Below, one piece after another: positions 2,251 through 36,099 of a stretch of 64,000 nucleotides of DNA (position 1 is the stretch's first letter; every line of letters begins with the position of its first letter). A program made the translations under genes and the position numbers. Source of the stretch: Escherichia coli (GTDB lineage: Bacteria; Pseudomonadota; Gammaproteobacteria; Enterobacterales; Enterobacteriaceae); the NCBI RefSeq assembly GCF_003991155.1, contig NZ_CP031293.1. The stretch is one strand, 5' to 3'. The notes under the pieces were generated by a model. It saw nothing but the letters and a program-made list of their open reading frames with translations. It made no database searches and was not told where the DNA came from.

Positions 2251-3042
2251 TTACATCGCGTTCAGACGTTTTTGCGCCTGTTTAGCGCCATCAGTACCAG
2301 GGTATTTACTGATAACCTGCTGGTATACGGCTTTCGCTTTTGCGGTGTCACCTTTGTCCTGCATGATGACGCCGACTTTAAACATCGCATCTGCAGCCTT
2401 CGGTGACTTCGGATAGTTTTTCACTACCGAAGCAAAATAATACGCCGCATCATCTTTTTTACCCTTGTTGTAGTTTAACTGACCCAGCCAATAATTGGCG
2501 TTTGGCAGGTAAGTTGAATCAGGGTAATTCTTGATGAAATTCTGAAATGCCACCATTGCGTCATCCTGGCGGGATTTATCCTGCACCAGCGCAATAGCTG
2601 CATTGTAATCCGTGTTTGCATCACCGCTTTTCACCGGCGCGCCAGCATTCGCAGTACCAGCATCAGCTGTCGGCGTCGTTGATGCCGCCGCACCGCTTTG
2701 ATCGCCGCTGGTTGATTGCGCCGTTGCACCACCGCTGCTGAGGCTATCGATCTGCAACAGGATCTGCTTTTGCCGCTCCACGACCTGATTCAGTTGATAC
2801 TGATTTTCCTGAATCTGACCACGCAGGGAATCAATATCGGATTGATTATCAGAGAGTTGTTGCTGGAGTTGGGTTAAAAGCTGGCTGTGAGCATTAGAAA
2901 TACGCTCAAGTTGAGTGACGCGGTCTTCGACCGAGCCTGAGCCGACACTACTGATTGGTGCCTGAGCAAAAGCGGCCCAGGGGGCCGCTATACCAACCAG
3001 TAACGACAGACTCAATAGTTGATGTCTGAAGTTACTGCTCAT
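2251..3042 (-). CDS. cpoB: Cell division coordinator CpoB (YbgF), a periplasmic TPR protein
   Basis: 263 aa with signal peptide MSSNFRHQLLSLSLLVGIAAPWAAFA, a Gln-rich coiled coil and a TPR C-terminus. It is the last gene of the tol-pal cluster. Confidence 0.95.
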   Translation of the reverse strand: MSSNFRHQLLSLSLLVGIAAPWAAFAQAPISSVGSGSVEDRVTQLERISNAHSQLLTQLQQQLSDNQSDIDSLRGQIQENQYQLNQVVERQKQILLQIDSLSSGGATAQSTSGDQSGAAASTTPTADAGTANAGAPVKSGDANTDYNAAIALVQDKSRQDDAMVAFQNFIKNYPDSTYLPNANYWLGQLNYNKGKKDDAAYYFASVVKNYPKSPKAADAMFKVGVIMQDKGDTAKAKAVYQQVISKYPGTDGAKQAQKRLNAM

Positions 3043-3051
3043 GCAATTCTC

Positions 3052-3597
<546 letters not shown>

Positions 3598-3607
3598 TTA
3601 ATTATTA

Positions 3608-4900
3608 TCACAGATACGGCGACCAGGCAGGGAATTTGACCTGTCCATCAGTTGCCGGAAGACGCGCTTTGAAACGCCCATCTGTAGAAACCAAATTCAG
3701 CACGGATCCCATCCCCTGAGAAGAGCTGTAGATTACCATAGTGCCGTTAGGTGCCAGACTTGGCGTTTCATCCAGGAACGTGGACGACAGAACTTGTACG
3801 CCTCCCGTTGCCAGATCTTGTTTGGCAATGTGCTGCTGTCCACCGTTGGAGCTAACCATTACCATAAATTTACCGTCGCTGCTGACATCCGCATCCTGGT
3901 TCTGCGAACCTTCCCAGGTAATACGTTGTGGCGCACCGCCGTTGATATTCACTTTATAAACCTGTGGACGACCGGCCTGGTCAGAAGTAAATGCCAGGTT
4001 CTGGCTATCCGGGAACCAGGTCGGTTCGGTATTGTTACTGCGACCATCAGTCACCTGGCGGATCTGACCAGAAGCCAAATCCATTACGTACAGGTTCAGA
4101 CTACCGGTTTTCGACAAGGCGAATGCCAGTTTGCTGCCGTCTGGCGAGAATGCAGGTGCACCGTTGTGACGCGGGAATGAAGCCACCTGACGTACAGCGC
4201 CATTTGCCAGCGTCTGAATAACCAGCGCGGAACGACCGCTTTCGAAGGTCACATAAGCCAGTTTAGAACCGTCTGGTGACCACGCCGGAGACATCAGCGG
4301 CTGCGGTGAACGGTGAACGACAAACTGGTTGTAACCGTCATAGTCAGATACGCGCAGTTCATACGGGAACTGACCGCCGTTGGTCTGAACAACGTAGGCA
4401 ATACGGGTACGGAACGCACCTTTAATGCCGGTCAGTTTTTCAAACACTTCATCACTGGCGGTATGACCAGCATAACGCAGCCACTGCTTGTTCACTTTGT
4501 ACGAGTTCTGAGCAAGTACAGTACCCGGTGCGCCGCCAGTGTCAACAAGTTGATAAGCAACATTGTAAGAACCATCCGGATTCGGAGTGACCTGACCGAC
4601 AACTACAGCGTCAATACCCAGCGCGGACCATGCAGCTGGTTGTACTTCCTGCGCACTACCCGGCTGCTGTGGCAGACGAGCGCGATCTAACGGATTAAAT
4701 TTACCGCTGTTACGCAAGTCGGCAGCAACGATGCCGCCAATATCTTCAGGTGCCGCACCAGGGCCCGCCCACTGGAAAGGAACAACTCCAATAGGACGAC
4801 CGGAATCTACACCGCTGTCGATCACAATGCGGACTTCAGCATGCAGAACTGATGCCCACAGTATGAGAAAACCAAATGCTACTCGTAATGCCTGCTTCAT
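3608..4900 (-). CDS. tolB: Tol-Pal system beta-propeller protein TolB
   Basis: Matches TolB ([21 protein letters not shown] signal peptide). The second of two tandem ATGs was chosen, giving 430 aa. Confidence 0.95.
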
Positions 4901-5032
4901 CATATCTCCCTTATCTGGACCGATGGCCCACGATAATTTAGCAGAATGTTAACAAACTAAAATACACAAAACTACCAGAACCCCGTGGCAACCGGTGCCT
5001 GATGTTGACCGTCGGAACAGTCAACATCGCGA

Positions 5033-6298
5033 TTACGGTTTGAAGTCCAATGGCGCGTTTTTGAACACTTCATATACTGCCTGGCTTGGTGGTTTCGGGA
5101 TCTTCGCAAGTTTAGCTGCTGCCAACGCAGCCTGACAAAGTGCGGGATCGCCACCTTCAGGTTTGATATCCAGTAACATACCATCGGGTGCCAGTTTTAT
5201 GCGCAGCGTACAGGTTTTGCCTGCATAGGACGATGCGTCATAGAACTTACTTTCGATAGCAGATTTAATCTGCCCGGCATAGTTATTGATATCGGCCCCT
5301 GATGCGCCATTGTTTTTAGTATTACCACTCCCGGCTGGCGAAGCATTGTTCCCTTTCGCCCCTCCCCCCGTTTTCGGTGCATTCTTACCAGAGCTTAGCT
5401 CACCGAAAATATCATCTGCCTCTGCGGCAGCTTTTGCTGCAGCGGCTTTTTCAGCTGCTGCTTTTGCCGCTGCCGCTTTTTTGTCTGCGGCGGCTTTTTC
5501 TGCCGCTGCTTTCTTATCAGCTGCTGCCTTTTCAGCAGCCGCTTTTTCTGCTGCTTTTTTGTCGGCTGCCGCTTTCTCTGCTGCCGCTTTCTTATCAGCT
5601 GCAGCCTTTTCAGCAGCCGCTTTCTTCTCAGCTTCTGCTTTGGCTTTTTCAGCAGCTTCAGTTGCCGCTTTCTTTCTTGCTTCAGCTGCAGCTGCTTCTG
5701 CCGCTTCCGCTTTCTTCTTCAGTGCCGCCGCGGCTGCCTCGGCTTTTTTCTGCGCTTCGGCTGCGGCTTTGGCGGCTTCTGCTTCTGCTTTTTTCTTCGC
5801 GTCTGCAGCCGCTTTCTTCGCTGCTTCTTCCGCAGCTTTTGCATCCGCTTCAGCCTTCGCTTTAGCATCTGCCGCCGCTTTCGCTGCCGCTTCTTCCGCT
5901 TGCTTCTGCTTTAACTCGGCCTGTTTTGCGGCTTCTTCAGCCTGCTTTTTCTGTTCCTGAGCCGCTAACCGCTCTTTCTCAAGTTGCTTCAGGCGTTCCT
6001 GTTCAGCCGCTTGTTTCTCACGCAGTTCTTCAGCAGCCTGCTGTTCCTTCATCTTGCGCTGCTCATCAGAACGCTTCGCGCTTGATTCCTGGCTTTGCAT
6101 GCGTTTGTACTGCTCAACTACCGCACCTGAATCAACCATGACAGCGTCGATGGACGAACCACCGCCGCCTCCGGCTGAAGCTTCTATATTCTCATCGAAC
6201 GAACTCCAGATCAGCGCCGCAAATAAGATGACATGCAGCACTGCTGAAATAATTATCGCCCGTTTGAGCTTGTCGTTTTGTTCGGTTGCCTTTGACAC
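5033..6298 (-). CDS. tolA: Tol-Pal system protein TolA
   Basis: 421 aa with an N-terminal TM anchor, a long Ala/Lys/Glu-rich helical domain II and a C-terminal domain III. Confidence 0.95.
   Translation of the reverse strand: MSKATEQNDKLKRAIIISAVLHVILFAALIWSSFDENIEASAGGGGGSSIDAVMVDSGAVVEQYKRMQSQESSAKRSDEQRKMKEQQAAEELREKQAAEQERLKQLEKERLAAQEQKKQAEEAAKQAELKQKQAEEAAAKAAADAKAKAEADAKAAEEAAKKAAADAKKKAEAEAAKAAAEAQKKAEAAAAALKKKAEAAEAAAAEARKKAATEAAEKAKAEAEKKAAAEKAAADKKAAAEKAAADKKAAEKAAAEKAAADKKAAAEKAAADKKAAAAKAAAEKAAAAKAAAEADDIFGELSSGKNAPKTGGGAKGNNASPAGSGNTKNNGASGADINNYAGQIKSAIESKFYDASSYAGKTCTLRIKLAPDGMLLDIKPEGGDPALCQAALAAAKLAKIPKPPSQAVYEVFKNAPLDFKP
5440..5660 (-). repeat. In-frame tandem repeats encoding the KKAAAEKAAAD-type periodicity of TolA domain II
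   Basis: ctttcttatcagctgc(t/a)gccttttcagcagccgct recurs at 5509 and 5587 (78-bp = 26-codon period) within highly reiterated gctgc/gcggc/ttt units. Confidence 0.8.
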
Positions 6299-11987: not shown

Positions 11988-12932
11988 ATGAGTCCTGATA
12001 ATATCGGTTCGGCTGTCAATCGCTTCTCAGGTTGGCCATCTAATGATCCTCTAAAAACAGATAACGAATCAATGACATCACCCGTGACTGTGCAGGTAAT
12101 AAAGATGATTGCCGCCATCCTTGACCCATATCGGATAGTCGTTGGAATCGATACACTTTATACAACGCAGCGCGAAACATTTACCTCAGAGAGTCAACAG
12201 CTCATTGAATCAGCATTGCAAACACTTCATGTGATAAATTTAAATAACCTGGAAACAAATCTCGATGAGGACGGTCACTATCTGGCTTTTGGATATAACG
12301 TTGACACTCCTGACAGAATAACCGTTTCTGCTTATAATGAAAAAAAGCCTGGCTGCTATGGCCAATGTCTTTTAATACAGGATGACGAAACAGACTTATT
12401 TAACCTGATAAAAGTTAAAATTTTTGAAGCCAGGCATAATTATGTCGCTCAATTGATGAGCGATCCGGAATTTATGTTCAAATTTAGTTATAGCGCTCAA
12501 CAAAATAGATTAGAACCTCATCTTCTGGTTCCCACTTATTTCCCTCTAAAAACAAACGAACCGGTTACGCAAGAGGATGTACTGTTACTTTATCGTTTCT
12601 TTAAAATGGATGGTGATTTTAATATATTAACATCAGATGAATACATGAGTATCATGACACCTCTGATGAAGTGTGAGCGCAGCATCCACGACCACAACAG
12701 GTATGTGACGGGCAAAGATACCCTTCTTCTGGACTATCCTCCTTCTGGTAACCAGATATATTTCCATATTTTTCCTGACGAATCAGCAACACTAGTCCTT
12801 TATTTTTCAAACAATGACATTGAATGTTTCGTCTTTGAAAGAGATATTCCGAGCCAGTATCGCTTTTTCAAAATGTTTACCAATCTGGCACTGGTTATTG
12901 ATCAGTTAACCGATGCCAATCAAATACTTTAA
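11988..12932 (+). CDS. Hypothetical protein, 314 aa, no recognised domain (orphan A)
   Basis: ATG preceded by GAGG 8 nt upstream, in an AT-rich, uninterrupted frame. The N-terminus is polar and Ser/Asn/Pro-rich. The exact hexapeptide YRFFKM occurs twice (codons at 12591-12608 and 12858-12875). Confidence 0.7.
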   Translation: MSPDNIGSAVNRFSGWPSNDPLKTDNESMTSPVTVQVIKMIAAILDPYRIVVGIDTLYTTQRETFTSESQQLIESALQTLHVINLNNLETNLDEDGHYLAFGYNVDTPDRITVSAYNEKKPGCYGQCLLIQDDETDLFNLIKVKIFEARHNYVAQLMSDPEFMFKFSYSAQQNRLEPHLLVPTYFPLKTNEPVTQEDVLLLYRFFKMDGDFNILTSDEYMSIMTPLMKCERSIHDHNRYVTGKDTLLLDYPPSGNQIYFHIFPDESATLVLYFSNNDIECFVFERDIPSQYRFFKMFTNLALVIDQLTDANQIL

Positions 12933-13012: not shown

Positions 13013-13435
13013 ATGATCCCATCTCAAATCTCTTTCAACACCCTTCCTGTCAATGCAACATACGCTTCAGAGACAACAGTTGACACACAAAAATTCTCTG
13101 ACATCCTCTACTCAGCGGGGTGTTCCCTAAAGGATCTGGCTTATCTGAGCAGATGTCTGGCATCAATACATCCGACTATCGCCAAAAACATTTATGAAAC
13201 AGAAAATCTCAGCGATCAAAAATTACTACATATTGATTGCCGTAGTACAAATGAAATCAAGATAAATATCTTTTTTGGTCAACAACGAGAAGGATTAATT
13301 GAAATTAATTCTGACACTGTCATTTTTTCGATATTGTCTTCATTAATTGACTCCGCCATTTCTAAATTTCAACACCAAATCCCCGTTAACGGTTCAGTTA
13401 ATCGTGAACTATTGTATGAGGATTATACTGATTAA
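13013..13435 (+). CDS. Hypothetical small acidic protein, 140 aa, no recognised domain (orphan B)
   Basis: Same strand as orphan A and 80 nt downstream of it, AT-rich. About 17 Asp/Glu versus 10 Lys/Arg by my count. The RBS is weak (ggaaag). Confidence 0.6.
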   Translation: MIPSQISFNTLPVNATYASETTVDTQKFSDILYSAGCSLKDLAYLSRCLASIHPTIAKNIYETENLSDQKLLHIDCRSTNEIKINIFFGQQREGLIEINSDTVIFSILSSLIDSAISKFQHQIPVNGSVNRELLYEDYTD

Positions 13436-31278: not shown

Positions 31279-32976
31279 TTAGCGAATCATCGGTAATTTC
31301 AGACCATAGTTTTTGGCACATTCAATTGCCGCTTCATAACCCGCATCCGCATGACGCATAACCCCGGACGCACAGTCATTCACCAGCACACGCGCCAGAC
31401 GTTTTTCGGCTTCTTCGCTACCATCGGCAACAATAACCATCCCGGCGTGTTGTGAATACCCCATCCCGACGCCGCCGCCATGATGCAGGGATACCCACGT
31501 TGCTCCCCCTGCAGTGTTGAGCAAACCGTTGAGCAACGGCCAGTCAGAAACCGCATCACTGCCATCAAGCATGCTTTCGGTTTCGCGGTTCGGGCTGGCG
31601 ACAGAACCGGTATCAAGATGATCGCGCCCAATCACAATCGGTGCTTTTAGTTCACCGTTGCGCACCATTTCGTTGAATGCCAGCCCCGCCAGGTGACGCT
31701 CACCAAGCCCCAGCCAGCAAATACGTGAAGGAAGTCCCTGGAAGGCAATGCGCTCGCGCGCCATATCCAGCCAGCGATGCGTCAGTACGTTATTGGGGAA
31801 CAACTCTTTAATTTTGGCATCAGTTTTATAGATATCTTCCGGGTCGCCAGACAGCGCCACCCAACGGAATGGACCTTTGCCTTCACAAAACATTGGACGA
31901 ATATAAGCCGGAACAAAGCCCGGGAAATCAAAGGCATTTTGCAGACCTTCGTTGAAGGCCACCTGGCGGATGTTGTTGCCATAATCGACAACCGGGATCC
32001 CCATCGCCTGGAAGTCCAGCATCCCCTGAACATGTGCGACGCAGCTCTGTGCCGCTTCTTTTTGCAATCTGGCGTGTTGCTGTGGATCCTGCTGTGCAGC
32101 GCGCCATTGTTCTACGCTCCAGCCCATCGGTAGGTAGCCATAAACCAGATCGTGAGCGGAAGTCTGGTCGGTCACCAGATCCGGCTTGATCGCCCCCTGA
32201 CGTGCACGTTTCACCAGTTCAGGAACAATTTCCGCCGCATTGCCCAACAGCGCGATTGAAACAGCGTCTTTGCGCTCAGTATGGTATTTAATCAGCGCCA
32301 GTGCATCATCGAGATCTTTCGCTTGTTTATCGACATAACGGGTACGCAGACGGAAGTCGATGCTACTTTGCTGGCACTCGATATTTAATGAACACGCCCC
32401 CGCCAGAGTCGCCGCCAGCGGTTGTGCACCGCCCATACCACCTAGCCCTGCGGTCAGGATCCATTTTCCACTCAGCGAATTGTTGTAGTGCTGACGACCC
32501 GCTTCAACAAAGGTTTCGAACGTTCCCTGCACAATGCCCTGACTACCGATGTAGATCCACGAGCCAGCGGTCATCTGGCCGTACATGAACAGACCTTTAC
32601 GATCCAGTTCATTGAAATGATCCCAGTTGGCCCATTGCGGTACCAGGTTAGAGTTGGCAATCAATACGCGCGGCGCATCGGTATGCGTTTTAAACACGCC
32701 TACGGGTTTACCGGACTGAACCAGCAGTGACTCATCAGCTTCCAGATTTTTCAGTGATTCAAGGATTTTGTCAAAACACTCCCAGTTACGTGCCGCACGA
32801 CCAATACCACCATACACCACCAGATGCTGTGGATTTTCGGCAACGTCGGGATCAAGGTTGTTCTGCAACATCCGATAGGCAGCTTCGATCTGCCAGTTTT
32901 TGCAGTGCAGCTGCGTACCGTGTGGCGCATGGATTACACGGCTGGTATCAATACGCGGGTCTGAAGGCTTACTCAT
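31279..32976 (-). CDS. hutU: Urocanate hydratase
   Basis: Start trimmed to ATG 32976 (AGGAGA upstream). 565 aa with the [18 protein letters not shown] site. Urocanase family throughout. Confidence 0.93.
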
Positions 32977-33733
32977 GAATCTTCTCCTGTTACTTGATAA
33001 AATTAAACGCTGTAATCGGTCAGAAAAAACGAACGAATGAATATAGAAACGGTTTCTATAATTCCCGTTTATCATTTTGTATTATTAATTCATTTAGTGA
33101 ATATTGTTTGTCGTGGTATATTCACTATGAATATAAATTCAAAACCACCAACGCGTTGTATGCGAATTCAATATGCTTAATTTAACTTGTCGAAAAAGTG
33201 ATATTGTTGGCAAAATATTTTCTAATTTGAACATATGAATATGATGAGATTGCAAGATGTCAGTAATTTAATTATATGAGAAATGCGTTAATAACGACCA
33301 GATATTAGCGTAACAACAGGTGTTCCGACACCACACAGTGCGCATAACACAATGATATTTAAAATAAGATCTTCATTATTCGTCATAAAGACATGTTTTA
33401 TTATCATTAATAATCCATTTGTTTTCATCCCACTTTTGATAATTAAAAAACGGCAACAATGGATAGTTACCCGACGTAAAAACAGGCGTAAAAATAAATC
33501 TTAAAATATATCCACTGGAAATTATCATTTTTCATATTTTACAATCTGGCGTCGATAACTGACCCCTTTTATAACACCCCCGTTTGTTAATAGTCTTTTT
33601 TATCTTGTATTGATCGTCATTGCTGCATACACTACGCGCGTTTTCTTTCCCTTTTGCTGGCTGCTGACCGGAAAGACAAAATTACCCTCGCAATAAAGGG
33701 GGTTGTTTAACGTCTATATTTCAGGACAGCGTT

Positions 33734-35131
33734 ATGCATCATCTTTCAAGGCTTGATAAAGCCTTTCTGCGCAAAGGGATCCAACTTTCCCGCGCCAACA
33801 ATATTGTTTCATTATGTCGTCCATCAGGAGCCAGTGCCCACGTACTGCTGCCGGACGAACTGCCGCTGGAAGAAAAAGCAGTGACACAACTGCTTGATTT
33901 TGCAGAAGTGAAGATACCAGACCATCCAGGTTACGTACGCCAGACCTGTGCGACGCCAGATTTTCATCCCGGCAATGGCGTCCCCGTTGGCGCGGTAGTC
34001 GCCTCTACGCCGGATTTAGTCATTCCTGCGGCCATCGGCACCGATATTTCTTGTGGCATGCGGCTGCTGACGACCGGATTAACACTTGAGCAAGCCGAAG
34101 CGAATAAAGAAATAATCACTCAGCGGTTAACACAAGTGTTACTGCAAAATGAGCGCGATGTTCCGTTATCCGCACGAGCGTTCACCGCGCTTTTTGATGG
34201 CGGACCGGCAGATTGCATGTCGGCCTTGCCATCAGCAGGTCTCTGGACACGTACAAATATCCCCCGAATGACGCAAGAGATTGACCGCTGCATTGGGCTT
34301 AACGAGCATAACAGTCATTCGCGTTATGCCCCACCCGCCCTACTGGTAACGGACCGCCCATTACTCCGCGATCCTTGTCTTGGTACGCCGGGTTCAGGTA
34401 ATCATTTTATTGAACTTCAGGTGGTTGATAGCGTGGTTGATCGCCATGTTGCCTGGCAACAAGGGCTGAAAACGGGCGATATTGTGGTGATGATCCACAG
34501 TGGATCGCGAGATGTTGGCTTTTACGTCGGAAGACGCTGGATGGATCGCGCCCGTGCTGAATGGCCCACCGGACATAAACATCCACAAAGCGGGTTATAT
34601 GGCCTGGCAGGCGGACTGGCGGAGGAATATCTACAAGCGATGGGAATGGCGGCGCGTTACGCGTGGTTAAATCGCGTCACAATTGCCGAAATGGTGCGCG
34701 TATGTCTTGCCAATCTCTTTCATCAGGACAATTCGCATCTGGTGGTGGATGTGCCGCATAACATCATCCTTCGCGAGCATGAAATGAATATTCATCGCAA
34801 AGGTGCAACACCGGCACGCGCGGGCAATCTGGCGTTAATCCCCGGTTCAATGGGCGATTATTCGTGGCTTGCAGTCGGTTGCGGCAACCCGGAGTGGCTG
34901 TGGTCTTGCAGTCACGGAGCAGGACGCAGCCAGCGTCGGCAGGCCATGCACTCACGCGCGACTGAAGAGTCAACGTTGCCGTGGCAATGCGTCACATTGC
35001 GCGAAGAACGGCGTATTGAAGAAGCGCCAGCTGCTTATAAAGATATTGGTCCGGTTATCGAAGCCCAACAAGAGGCCGGATTAATTCATCCAGCGGTTAG
35101 ATTCCGACCGTGGTTAACGTTTAAGGCATAA
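33734..35131 (+). CDS. RtcB-family RNA 3'-phosphate ligase paralogue (stand-alone)
   Basis: 465 aa. RtcB signature blocks are conserved: PDFHPG, GTDISCGMR, GSGNHFIELQ, IHSGSRDVG, PHNII, HRKGATPA, IPGSMG, SHGAGR. Confidence 0.88.
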   Translation: MHHLSRLDKAFLRKGIQLSRANNIVSLCRPSGASAHVLLPDELPLEEKAVTQLLDFAEVKIPDHPGYVRQTCATPDFHPGNGVPVGAVVASTPDLVIPAAIGTDISCGMRLLTTGLTLEQAEANKEIITQRLTQVLLQNERDVPLSARAFTALFDGGPADCMSALPSAGLWTRTNIPRMTQEIDRCIGLNEHNSHSRYAPPALLVTDRPLLRDPCLGTPGSGNHFIELQVVDSVVDRHVAWQQGLKTGDIVVMIHSGSRDVGFYVGRRWMDRARAEWPTGHKHPQSGLYGLAGGLAEEYLQAMGMAARYAWLNRVTIAEMVRVCLANLFHQDNSHLVVDVPHNIILREHEMNIHRKGATPARAGNLALIPGSMGDYSWLAVGCGNPEWLWSCSHGAGRSQRRQAMHSRATEESTLPWQCVTLREERRIEEAPAAYKDIGPVIEAQQEAGLIHPAVRFRPWLTFKA

Positions 35132-35229
35132 AAAAAGGCCATCATATGATGGCCAACCATGTCGAAACCGACAGCCCTTCGCCATTCCTGTAGAGGGAAG
35201 CGGCGAGGGCTATTTCTTATTACAGATAT
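35131..35229 (-). ncRNA. sdhX: sucD 3'-UTR-derived sRNA SdhX (RybD) with its intrinsic terminator
   Basis: The 99 nt between the sucD stop and GGCCATCATATGATGGCC-TTTTTTT (hairpin 35137-35154) match the position and about 100-nt length I recall for SdhX. Sequence identity was not verified. Confidence 0.55.
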
Positions 35230-36099
35230 TTATTTCAGAACAGTTTTCAGTGCTTCACCGATATCCGCCAGGCTGCGAACGGTTTTCACGCCTGCGGCTT
35301 CCAGAGCAGCGAATTTCTCATCCGCAGTCCCTTTCCCACCGGCAATGATCGCACCTGCGTGACCCATACGTTTGCCTTTCGGCGCAGTCACACCAGCGAT
35401 GTAACCTACAACTGGCTTGGTAACGTGCTCTTTGATGTATGCAGCCGCTTCTTCTTCAGCGCTACCACCGATCTCACCGATCATCACGATCGCTTCGGTC
35501 TGCGGATCTTTTTCGAACATTTCGAGGATGTCGATAAAGTTAGAGCCAGGGATCGGGTCGCCGCCGATACCAACACAGGTCGACTGACCGAAACCGTAAT
35601 CCGTGGTCTGTTTAACCGCTTCATAGGTCAGTGTACCGGAACGGGAAACGATACCCACTTTACCCGGTTTGTGAATGTGACCAGGCTGGATACCGATTTT
35701 GCATTCACCCGGAGTGATAACGCCCGGGCAGTTCGGGCCGATCATGCGAACGCCCGCTTCATCCAGTTTCACCTTCACGGTCAGCATATCCAGCGTCGGG
35801 ATGCCTTCAGTGATGGTGATAATCAGTTTGATGCCTGCATCAATAGCTTCCAGAATGGAGTCTTTGCAGAACGGTGCTGGTACGTAGATAACAGAAGCGG
35901 TAGCGCCAGTAGCAGCAACAGCTTCACGCACGGTGTTGAACACCGGCAGGCCGAGGTGGGTGGTGCCGCCTTTACCTGGGGTTACGCCGCCAACCATTTT
36001 AGTGCCGTATGCAATAGCCTGTTCTGAGTGGAAAGTCCCCTGGCTACCGGTAAAGCCCTGGCAGATAACCTTGGTGTTTTTATCAATTAAAATGGACAT
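35230..36099 (-). CDS. sucD: Succinyl-CoA synthetase alpha subunit
   Basis: 289 aa, matching SucD. Confidence 0.97.

Follow-up and report, generated by a model that had tools for sequence, protein, structure and literature searches.

A third RtcB paralogue in Escherichia coli with a conserved leader predicted to bury the start codon

The timing with which bacterial RNA-repair enzymes are made is partly understood: the ligase RtcB1 requires RtcR, an activator with a CARF domain, and RtcB2 is linked with PrfH. In a 64,000-nucleotide stretch of Escherichia coli DNA (contig NZ_CP031293.1 of the RefSeq assembly GCF_003991155.1; the window in what follows), an initial annotation made from the letters alone pointed to a further rtcB gene, here called rtcB3, that appeared to stand without either of these partners, and the locus raises the question of what kind of ligase it encodes and what would set its expression. 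The answer developed below, which we hold to be probable rather than secure, is that rtcB3 encodes a catalytically competent RNA ligase of the RtcB family with all active-site residues kept, that the gene does not depend on RtcR, and that it would be controlled post-transcriptionally by sequestration of the start codon in a bistable leader.

The predicted protein matched the Pfam RtcB family PF01139 (E=6.7e-95, 319 bits against a cut-off of 27) over residues 63-464, corresponding to profile positions 7-425 of 426 and thus to the full length of the family. A phmmer search against the PDB sequences aligned residues 41-460 with residues 31-476 of P. horikoshii (Pho) RtcB (E=1.9e-40), and in this alignment D76/H78, D104/C107, N223/H224, H255 and H342 of rtcB3 corresponded to D65/H67, D95/C98, N202/H203, H234 and H329 of the Pho enzyme, respectively. 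Among these, D104, C107, H224, H255 and H342 are the counterparts of Pho D95, C98, H203, H234 and H329, which we take to be the metal ligands. The initial annotation had assigned the guanylylated histidine to the PHN block, and this assignment was wrong: the PHN histidine (H342) aligned with Pho H329, presumably a manganese ligand, and H394 in the block SCSHGAGR aligned with Pho H404 by phmmer and with E. coli H337 by BLASTP against K-12 RtcB, the position that we take to be guanylylated. The guanylylated histidine of rtcB3 is therefore placed in SCSHGAGR and not in the PHN block. All of these positions, H394 included, were invariant across 22 aligned members of the clade, and the alignments to the Pho enzyme, to K-12 RtcB and to these 22 proteins bore out the earlier description of an intact RtcB with its signature blocks and metal ligands kept.

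An AlphaFold model of the protein built from the 22-member clade alignment reached a predicted local distance difference test score (pLDDT) of 81.5 and a predicted template modelling score (pTM) of 0.87. All 16 significant matches of this model in a Foldseek search against the PDB were RtcB proteins, with template modelling (TM) scores of 0.69-0.82, including 0.82 for the human enzyme, 0.79 for Pho RtcB with guanosine monophosphate (GMP) and Mn, and 0.74 for the Thermus protein. The length of 465 residues had been remarked on as greater than the 408 residues of K-12 RtcB; that figure was correct, which makes rtcB3 57 residues longer, yet this is an ordinary length for an RtcB that aligns end to end with the Pho enzyme, as the Pho, Thermus and human proteins have 481, 487 and about 505 residues and it is K-12 RtcB1 that is short. 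By homology, rtcB3 would use GTP and Mn2+, pass through a His394-GMP intermediate and join RNA ends carrying a 2',3'-cyclic phosphate or a 3'-phosphate to 5'-OH ends.

A second genome, NZ_AP021933.1, is 100% identical to the window over positions 32900-35300 and also carries rtcR-rtcB-rtcA between glpR and malT and a 379-residue RtcB with prfH beside pepD (rtcB2-prfH). The rtcB3 protein was 31% identical to RtcB1 by BLASTP and 29% identical to RtcB2. It scored below the cut-offs of the PrfH-type NCBIfam models (205.6 against 407 bits for NF007153 and 169 against 271.8 bits for TIGR03073), and the NCBIfam RtcB2 models aligned only to its C-terminal half. rtcB3 is a third RtcB paralogue in E. 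coli, best read as independent of RtcR and of PrfH.

RtcB1, encoded by rtcBA with the sigma-54 activator RtcR, belongs to the same family, has the same catalytic residues and occurs together with rtcB3 in one genome; however, rtcB3 has neither rtcA nor rtcR within 20 kb on either side, no sigma-54 promoter in its conserved unit, and the full archaeal-type N-terminal region where RtcB1 is shorter. The predicted sigma-70-like promoter and structured leader that precede rtcB3 are likewise its own, and the leader is missing from the rtcBA locus. With RtcB2 of the RtcB2-PrfH ribosome repair module (Tian et al. 2022, PMC9304027; Maviza et al. 2022, PMC9223846) rtcB3 shares the motifs IPGS(M/R)GDYSWL and, at the C-terminus, RP(W/V)LT(F/L)K, but no prfH adjoins it and the two proteins have the low identity given above. 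The archaeal, Thermus and human enzymes (PH1602, TTHA1785 and RTCB) have the same full-length architecture and fold, although they were only 20-26% identical to rtcB3 in structural alignment and no archease lies near rtcB3. To our knowledge these enzymes work in tRNA splicing, and we know of no equivalent of that function in Proteobacteria.

Several RtcB paralogues in one bacterium are not without precedent. Maughan and Shuman (2015) are reported to describe Myxococcus xanthus RtcB paralogues that differ in RNA and DNA ligation and capping activities, a likeness to the E. coli case that is drawn from the described activities. A third E. coli RtcB has itself been mentioned: Tian et al. (2022; PMC9304027) devote one sentence to 'a third RtcB' in about 60 E. 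coli strains, without characterisation, and assign substrates for only three of eight RtcB sequence clusters. Nothing on this third RtcB beyond that mention was found in the searchable literature. The same paper states that RtcB1 is encoded by all strains; in contrast, megablast found the canonical rtcB in 4857 of 5426 complete E. coli genomes, and about 10% of strains therefore have no RtcB1 or a diverged copy.

The description of rtcB3 as a gene standing alone was confirmed, as no rtcA, rtcR, prfH or archease gene was annotated within 20 kb on either side in the identical RefSeq genome. Homologues of 462-485 residues with 55-67% identity were plentiful in Pseudomonas, Burkholderia, Ralstonia, Variovorax, Undibacterium, Chitinimonas, Massilia, Achromobacter, Acidovorax, Saezia and Gilliamella, and those inspected in P. 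aeruginosa, Burkholderia, an enterobacterium-like metagenome and others had unrelated neighbours. When all open reading frames (ORFs) within 3.5 kb were compared across 35 lineages, defined as 80% clusters of RtcB sequence, the commonest neighbour family occurred in five of the 35 and on either side of the gene; archease was not recurrent beside the homologues, and no regulator gene linked to the rtcB3 unit was found among the recurrent neighbours. rtcB3 belongs to a large beta- and gammaproteobacterial clade of stand-alone RtcBs.

If no gene accompanies rtcB3, the question becomes how much of the sequence upstream of it does. A 757-bp AT-rich spacer (32977-33733) separates the gene from the RefSeq start of the divergent hutU at 32976, and the coordinates, the divergence from hutU, the convergence with sucD and a G+C content of about 0.30 in mid-spacer were as first described. 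BLASTN comparison with related loci (given L numbers here where they must be told apart) divided this spacer. Conservation with the gene began at 33624-33626 in L002, L017 and L018 and at 33660 in L014, so that only about 108 bp (33626-33733) goes with rtcB3. The hutU-proximal part was conserved only where hutU is present. The AT-rich stretch between the two is single-copy and unannotated, occurs only in the 144 genomes that carry hut, and was more divergent among E. coli than the gene; its single copy and its restriction to genomes with hut led us to reject it as the remnant of a mobile element. The heritable unit is 33626-35126, comprising a predicted sigma-70-type promoter, a leader of about 95 nt and the ORF. 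The expectation that no partner would be found in an unrecognised small ORF also held, since 33626-35126 leaves no room for one and the short reading frames at 33288-33528 fall within the AT-rich part of the spacer that is not conserved. An 18-codon ORF with a TTG start that crosses the leader was set aside by eye, as the length differences between lineages would break it and the helices covary.

Among enterobacterial alleles the 94-nt leader was more conserved than the ORF in all five comparisons, with leader and ORF identities of 98.9% and 95.5% for L099, 97.9% and 93.8% for L100, 94.7% and 91.6% for L002, 88.3% and 79.9% for L017, and 88.3% and 74.9% for L018. The 86 nt upstream of the leader had about 52% identity, the level of unrelated sequence.

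The elements of the leader and the flanking features are listed in Table 1. Nearly all lineages have a -10 element of the form TAnnnT whose end lies 18-26 nt 5' of GCUGCUG, in most cases preceded by TTGnnn with 16-18 nt between the two, and from the placement of the -10 and -35 elements we infer a transcript start at about 33640, just before a pyrimidine-rich stretch. No sigma-54 promoter consensus was found in 33626-33733; one match with two mismatches at 33208 lies outside the unit, and the 41 such matches in the window against 44.6 expected are at the level of chance.

Table 1. Positions of rtcB3, its leader elements and adjoining features in the window
Feature	Positions	Strand	Details
rtcB3 open reading frame	33734..35131	+	ATG start, 465 aa; RefSeq WP_000546467.1 'RtcB family protein'
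Predicted sigma-70-type promoter	33605..33633	+	-35 TTGTAT 33605-33610, 17-nt spacer, -10 TACACT 33628-33633
Conserved structured 5' leader of rtcB3 mRNA (~94 nt)	33640..33733	+	profile search, identity, folding
Y1, UCUUUCC, pyrimidine-rich 5' arm of H1	33644..33650	+	pairs with R 33670-33676
GCUGCUG, H1 loop and 5' strand of P1	33660..33666	+	invariant in 45/45 aligned short-form leaders
R, purine-rich strand GGAAAGAC	33670..33677	+	pairs with Y1 (H1) or Y2 (P2)
H2 hairpin CCCUC-GCAAUAAA-GGGGG inside P2	33685..33702	+	predicted in nearly every parsed lineage, sequence differs
Y2, GUCU...UUC, 3' strand of P2	33712..33722	+	minimum-free-energy pairing with 33671-33677
Initiation region, 3' strand of P1	33723..33738	+	Shine-Dalgarno AGGA 33723-33726, CAGC 33727-33730, AUG 33734-33736
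AT-rich spacer, ~30% GC, unlinked to rtcB	33263..33623		unconserved in L017, L002, L018 and the second E. coli arrangement
hutU-proximal intergenic region, goes with hut cluster	32977..33262		part of continuous 83% match 31279-33262 to L017 hut cluster
sucD 3' untranslated region with terminator hairpin (35137-35154)	35132..35229	-	terminator-like GGCCATCATATGATGGCC then seven Ts

The heptamer GCTGCTG was present upstream of the start codon in nearly all of 98 loci, lying 54-83 nt upstream in a short form of the leader (74 nt in E. coli) and 90-134 nt upstream in a long form with extra hairpins. A nhmmer profile made from 39 non-enterobacterial leaders had a single match in the 64-kb window, at 33647-33735 (E=2.3e-5). 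A second profile from all 45 leaders gave 91 matches in 807 kb of loci, all on the sense strand and all in rtcB leaders, and neither rtcBA nor rtcB2-prfH had a match. No profile match was obtained in three highly divergent clade members, which are among those of lowest identity (56-57%); L080 and L088 have no recognisable leader and L098 keeps only GCTGCTG. A separate count gave 69 distinct leaders, and 47 lineage representatives made up the set used for covariation below.

The leader corresponds to no catalogued RNA. Rfam 15 returned no family for it in the window (gathering thresholds and E<=10), nor for the short form L063 or the long form L033 (E<=10); over 32800-35400 only noise was returned at E<=10, and ARAGORN called no tRNA. 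Y-RNA-like or tRNA-like RNAs, which had been suggested as something that covariance models might find in the spacer and which would have likened the locus to the Ro/Y-RNA-linked operon rsr-yrlBA-rtcBA of the Salmonella type, as well as any other known RNA, were rejected on these results, and no paper describing the motif was found in the searchable literature. The suggestion of an unannotated regulatory element in a long leader stood in part: there is a structured leader, directly 5' of the AUG, but it is of about 95 nt and not 757 bp, and it is not of the Y-RNA or tRNA type.

Folding of the E. coli leader with RNAfold gave a minimum free energy (MFE) of -29.2 kcal/mol (z=-2.43), and in this predicted fold the segment 33655-33669 pairs with the GG of the Shine-Dalgarno (SD) sequence, with CAGC and with the first and third bases of the AUG. 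The same architecture was predicted in all 16 diverse leaders folded, in which a helix P2 formed by R and Y2 lies within a helix P1 and encloses the hairpin H2; the median z-score was about -2.7 (range -0.6 to -4.5), and 13 of the 16 had a z-score of -2 or lower. In P1, GCUGCUG with its flanks is paired to CAGC with its flanks, adjacent to or overlapping the AUG, and in many lineages the helix extends into the start codon. The flanks of P1 covary between lineages, for example as UGAUGCUG/CAGCAUCA, UUGUGCUG/CAGCACAA, GUUUGCUGCU/AGCAGCAAAU, CGCUGCUG/CAGCAGCG, GUGCUGCU/AGCAGCAC, UUCGCUG/CAGCGAA, GCUGCAAG/CUUGCAGC and GCUGCAGG/UCUGCAGC.

A competing hairpin, H1, is formed by Y1 and R with GCUGCUG in the loop and had a predicted energy of -10.2 kcal/mol on its own in E. 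coli. With g denoting the first G of GCUGCUG, both H1 and P2 draw on positions g+10 to g+14 of R and are therefore mutually exclusive. The closed fold with P1 and P2 was the MFE structure in 44 of 44 lineages. Forcing H1 cost a median of +8.2 kcal/mol (+2.6 in E. coli) and left 44% of positions -8 to +3 at the start codon paired in prediction, compared with 69% in the closed fold. As the closed fold was preferred in every lineage and forcing H1 lowers this pairing, the leader is read as a translational off-switch at equilibrium.

Support for the three helices was sought in the natural variation of the leaders. MAFFT with RNAalifold on the natural sequences recovered only the 4-bp GCUG:CAGC core, as the stem registers differ between lineages, and structural alignments padded with N were re-gapped by MAFFT. 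These were replaced by an alignment of helix blocks joined by constant artificial linkers, to which the aligner added no gaps, with the 5' strands anchored on GCUGCUG and the partner register fitted once per sequence and helix. In the 47 leaders 73.6% of cells were paired against 60.2+-0.8 after shuffling, and 290 cells were changed on both sides against 130+-10. There were also 89 further pair types against 76.3+-3.0, a measure among the two least sensitive to relatedness, and the covariation score was 0.459 against 0.230; none of 500 shuffles reached the observed value in any of these four measures. Slid controls were 40-49% paired. Compensatory changes were seen at 24 of 31 pairs, comprising all eight of H1, all ten of P2 and six of the 13 of P1; the core of P1 shows no covariation because it is invariant. 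Of the cells in H1 and P2, 83% and 76% were paired across the 47 lineages. G-U pairs were frequent in the leader helices, which argues for RNA rather than DNA as the conserved form. In a per-lineage test on 44 representatives, in which the best perfect helix was compared with 300 shuffles of the partner strand, p<0.05 would be expected in 5% of lineages; P1 reached it in 61% of them, H1 in 36% and P2 in 34%.

These patterns suggest how the leader may work. In the closed fold, pairing of R with Y2 around H2 would bring GCUGCUG to CAGC and the flanks, so that the SD sequence and the AUG would be buried. In the alternative fold the 5'-terminal Y1 would capture R, breaking P2 and loosening P1. H1 would be transcribed first and may be stabilised by some factor; it could then be a selected alternative that allows initiation, either transiently or for as long as it is stabilised. 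Given these two folds, expression would be set after transcription, by the share of the mRNA that is in, or held in, H1. The leader probably hides the start codon and in that way controls when the enzyme is made, and it is from the modelled folds that we infer both the translational control and its direction.

Known leaders that hide a ribosome-binding site in a long-range helix are built in a comparable way, with an upstream strand that pairs the SD sequence and AUG and an alternative partner that frees both. The rpoS leader, opened by DsrA, RprA and ArcZ, translational riboswitches and the pairing of the HAC1 5' untranslated region with the intron are of this kind. In contrast to rpoS-type leaders and riboswitches, the competing partner Y1 of rtcB3 is in cis at the 5' end and the leader is tied to one enzyme clade. 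The gene that it would regulate is rtcB alone, and the gene context accordingly yielded no candidate for a ligand or factor that shifts the fold.

Several observations weigh against start-codon sequestration in this form. One covariation measure, the number of pairs with a change on both sides, was non-significant (24 against 22.8, reached in 128 of 500 shuffles). Fitting the register per sequence favours pairing, and the sequences are phylogenetically related. Some pairing would also be expected from composition alone, as Y1 and Y2 are pyrimidine-rich, R is purine-rich and all are of low complexity; and it was in only about a third of lineages that H1 and P2 individually differed from their shuffles, as given above. 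Within the family, helices are weakest in the E. coli leader (perfect-helix p = 0.32, 0.22 and 0.35), which also has a good SD sequence, and control in this species may be leaky. None of the MFE structures contains H1, so that the open state needs kinetics or some factor. The promoter and the 5' end of the transcript are themselves predictions. Lastly, P1 does not explain the invariance of all seven bases of GCUGCUG, as lineages use either the first or the second GCUG for pairing; conservation beyond the need of P1 points to an additional interaction.

This last point leads to the reading in which the leader is a sensor tied to the job of the enzyme, an RNA-based detector of RNA damage or ribosome status in place of RtcR. 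We regard it as unlikely on present evidence, in each of its two versions. In the first, RtcB3 would repress its own synthesis by binding a substrate mimic in the leader, in the manner of threonyl-tRNA synthetase, which binds its own operator, and would be titrated away by broken RNA. In the second, the H1 loop would act as a decoy for a ribotoxin, the cut would open the start codon, and RtcB3 could later reseal the leader. The strict association of GCUGCUG with this RtcB clade, seen in the exclusive placement of the 91 profile matches in its leaders and their absence from rtcBA and rtcB2-prfH, is in keeping with such a role, as are the excess invariance of the heptamer and the lack of a linked protein sensor such as RtcR throughout the clade. 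H1 would moreover hold the two halves of a cut loop together, like the broken stem-loops that RtcB seals. However, the H1 loop of 10-19 nt is not anticodon-like and no known ribotoxin site matches it. The heptamer is exactly complementary to CAGCAGC, a sequence that occurs once in 16S rRNA, in the universally conserved region of the 530 loop (L105, positions 519-526), and not in 23S rRNA, but the match of the heptamer to the complement of 519-525 is a post hoc 7-mer coincidence. We rejected both an antisense role of GCUGCUG towards 16S 519-525 and a 530-loop mimic at CAGCAGCC: the probability of such matches by chance is roughly estimated at 0.1-0.3, and CAGCAGCC was present in two of 56 distinct start contexts.

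That the leader is mainly a transcription attenuator, with P2, H2 and a U tract as terminator, H1 as antiterminator and P1 secondary, is in our view improbable. The competition of H1 and P2 for R does resemble antiterminator and terminator pairs, and Y2 is followed by four or five U in several lineages (GUACCUUUUUCAUUUU in L013, GUGUUUUUCU in L007 and CGUGUUUUUC in L041). In many other lineages, among them the long forms, L063, L004 and L011, P2 is not followed by a U tract, and attenuation is for this reason not the common mechanism, although it may contribute in those lineages that have one. The flanks of P1 covary and overlap the AUG, which is sensible only for translation, and a scan for terminator-like sites gave none on the + strand of the leader in E. 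coli.

A more sceptical account holds that in E. coli rtcB3 is carried along as a passenger by a metabolic island and has no regulated role, and that the leader matters only in donor lineages. The distribution of the unit bears on this. Leader and gene (33600-35131) were present at >=80% coverage in 289 of 5426 complete E. coli genomes, about 5%, in two arrangements. In the window type (144 genomes) the order is cobO, LysR, hutH-G-I-D, permease, hutU, spacer, rtcB and sucD, with mngRAB absent. In the second type (about 145 genomes, about 96% identical, such as L099 from EE72d and L100 from MB53) there is no hut cluster, the order is LysR, rtcB, mngB, mngA, mngR and sucD, and similarity to the window extends from 33626 to 35126. 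A position at the island border, which the initial annotation had mentioned, is thus nothing special, as in these further genomes the unit lies between LysR and mngB. We likewise rejected a functional connection with hut, since hutU was found in only 144 of the 5426 genomes and about half of the carriers of rtcB3 have no hut. A few of the approximately 35 genomes with only a partial match are of a deletion type, which brings the variants of the island in E. coli to at least three; in the one inspected (L106, E. coli CM2), hut has been lost together with all of rtcB except its final 33 nt, which lie beside sucD. Among more distant relatives, the metagenomic L017 (86% amino-acid identity) has the same hut-spacer-rtcB layout with a TPR gene downstream, and L018 (83% identity) has rtcB between unrelated genes. 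In L017 a cytosine/purine permease (3994-5402) is split into ORFs of 215 and 172 codons, probably by a frameshift or an assembly error.

The small share of carrier genomes, the 33-nt scar of the deletion and the weakness of the E. coli leader helices would all suit a passenger. Against this, the ORF is intact in the 289 genomes at 94-100% identity and in two different arrangements, within Escherichia the ORF has diverged further than the leader (leader identities of 98.9% and 94.7%, ORF identities of 95.5% and 91.6%, as above), and amino-acid identity exceeds nucleotide identity in the comparison with L017 (86% against 80%), and we consider the passenger account distinctly improbable. That the conserved block is a DNA operator or promoter element bound by a transcription factor is the least likely of the alternatives and highly improbable: Y1 and R do form an inverted repeat at about +5 to +37, a frequent repressor zone, behind a conserved and well-placed -10/-35 pair, but the arms change and stay complementary with many G-U pairs that would be mismatches in DNA, GCUGCUG and CAGC lie anywhere from 54 to 134 nt apart, R is also contested by a third partner, Y2, and no regulator gene is linked to the unit. 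Start-codon sequestration by the leader is the reading retained.

The surroundings of rtcB3 in the window are metabolic, with a methylaspartate/mesaconate set, fumarase, cobO, a LysR regulator, the hut genes and the suc-sdh operons as its neighbours. It is the last gene of an accessory island of about 23 kb between cydA and sucD (approximately 11988-35131), which contains two hypothetical ORFs (11988-12932 and 13013-13435), methylaspartate mutase (glmS/L/E), methylaspartate ammonia-lyase, AtuA/DUF4387 genes, a dicarboxylate symporter, a class I fumarase, cobO, the LysR regulator and the hut cluster. The genes mngR, mngA and mngB, which presumably lie between cydA and sucD in K-12, are missing from the island in the window. 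The longest ORF of hutU (31279-33075 on the - strand, 598 codons with an ATG at 33075) exceeds the 565 codons of the RefSeq gene that starts at 32976, the start also used in the initial annotation, and the extra 33 codons lie in AT-rich sequence and are probably untranslated.

On the other side, sucD is convergent with rtcB3 and its stop codon is 98 bp away; the sucD end of a 2.4-kb query was matched in 5425 of 5426 genomes. rtcB3 ends against the strong terminator hairpin of sucD, which might serve both convergent transcripts, and the sucD 3' untranslated region is outside the rtcB unit. The small RNA SdhX (RybD) is, we assume, processed from the suc transcript in this region, where Rfam returned nothing but a chance-level match to RyhB (E=9.6). 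Two ordinary core-genome features lie further off on the - strand, a group of seven tRNA genes at 1383-2086 (five Lys-UUU and two Val-UAC) and a full-score CpoB/ybgF RNA thermometer (RF02782, 142 bits) at 3013-3151.

The rtcB3 protein itself is an ordinary-looking RtcB of a distinct clade, and its existence in E. coli is already in print. What appears to be new is that this clade forms a single-gene unit with its own predicted promoter and a conserved, covarying leader that is modelled as bistable and as burying the start codon. The third E. coli RtcB sits in a genetically tractable host, where control of an RtcB without RtcR can be tested. If the leader responds to RNA damage, it would represent a new class of cis-acting stress sensor; otherwise it is an uncatalogued structured RNA motif with more than 60 distinct representatives and a candidate for the RNA family databases. 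Were the sensor reading true, rtcB3 and its relatives would constitute a self-contained, single-gene RNA-repair circuit across Beta- and Gammaproteobacteria.

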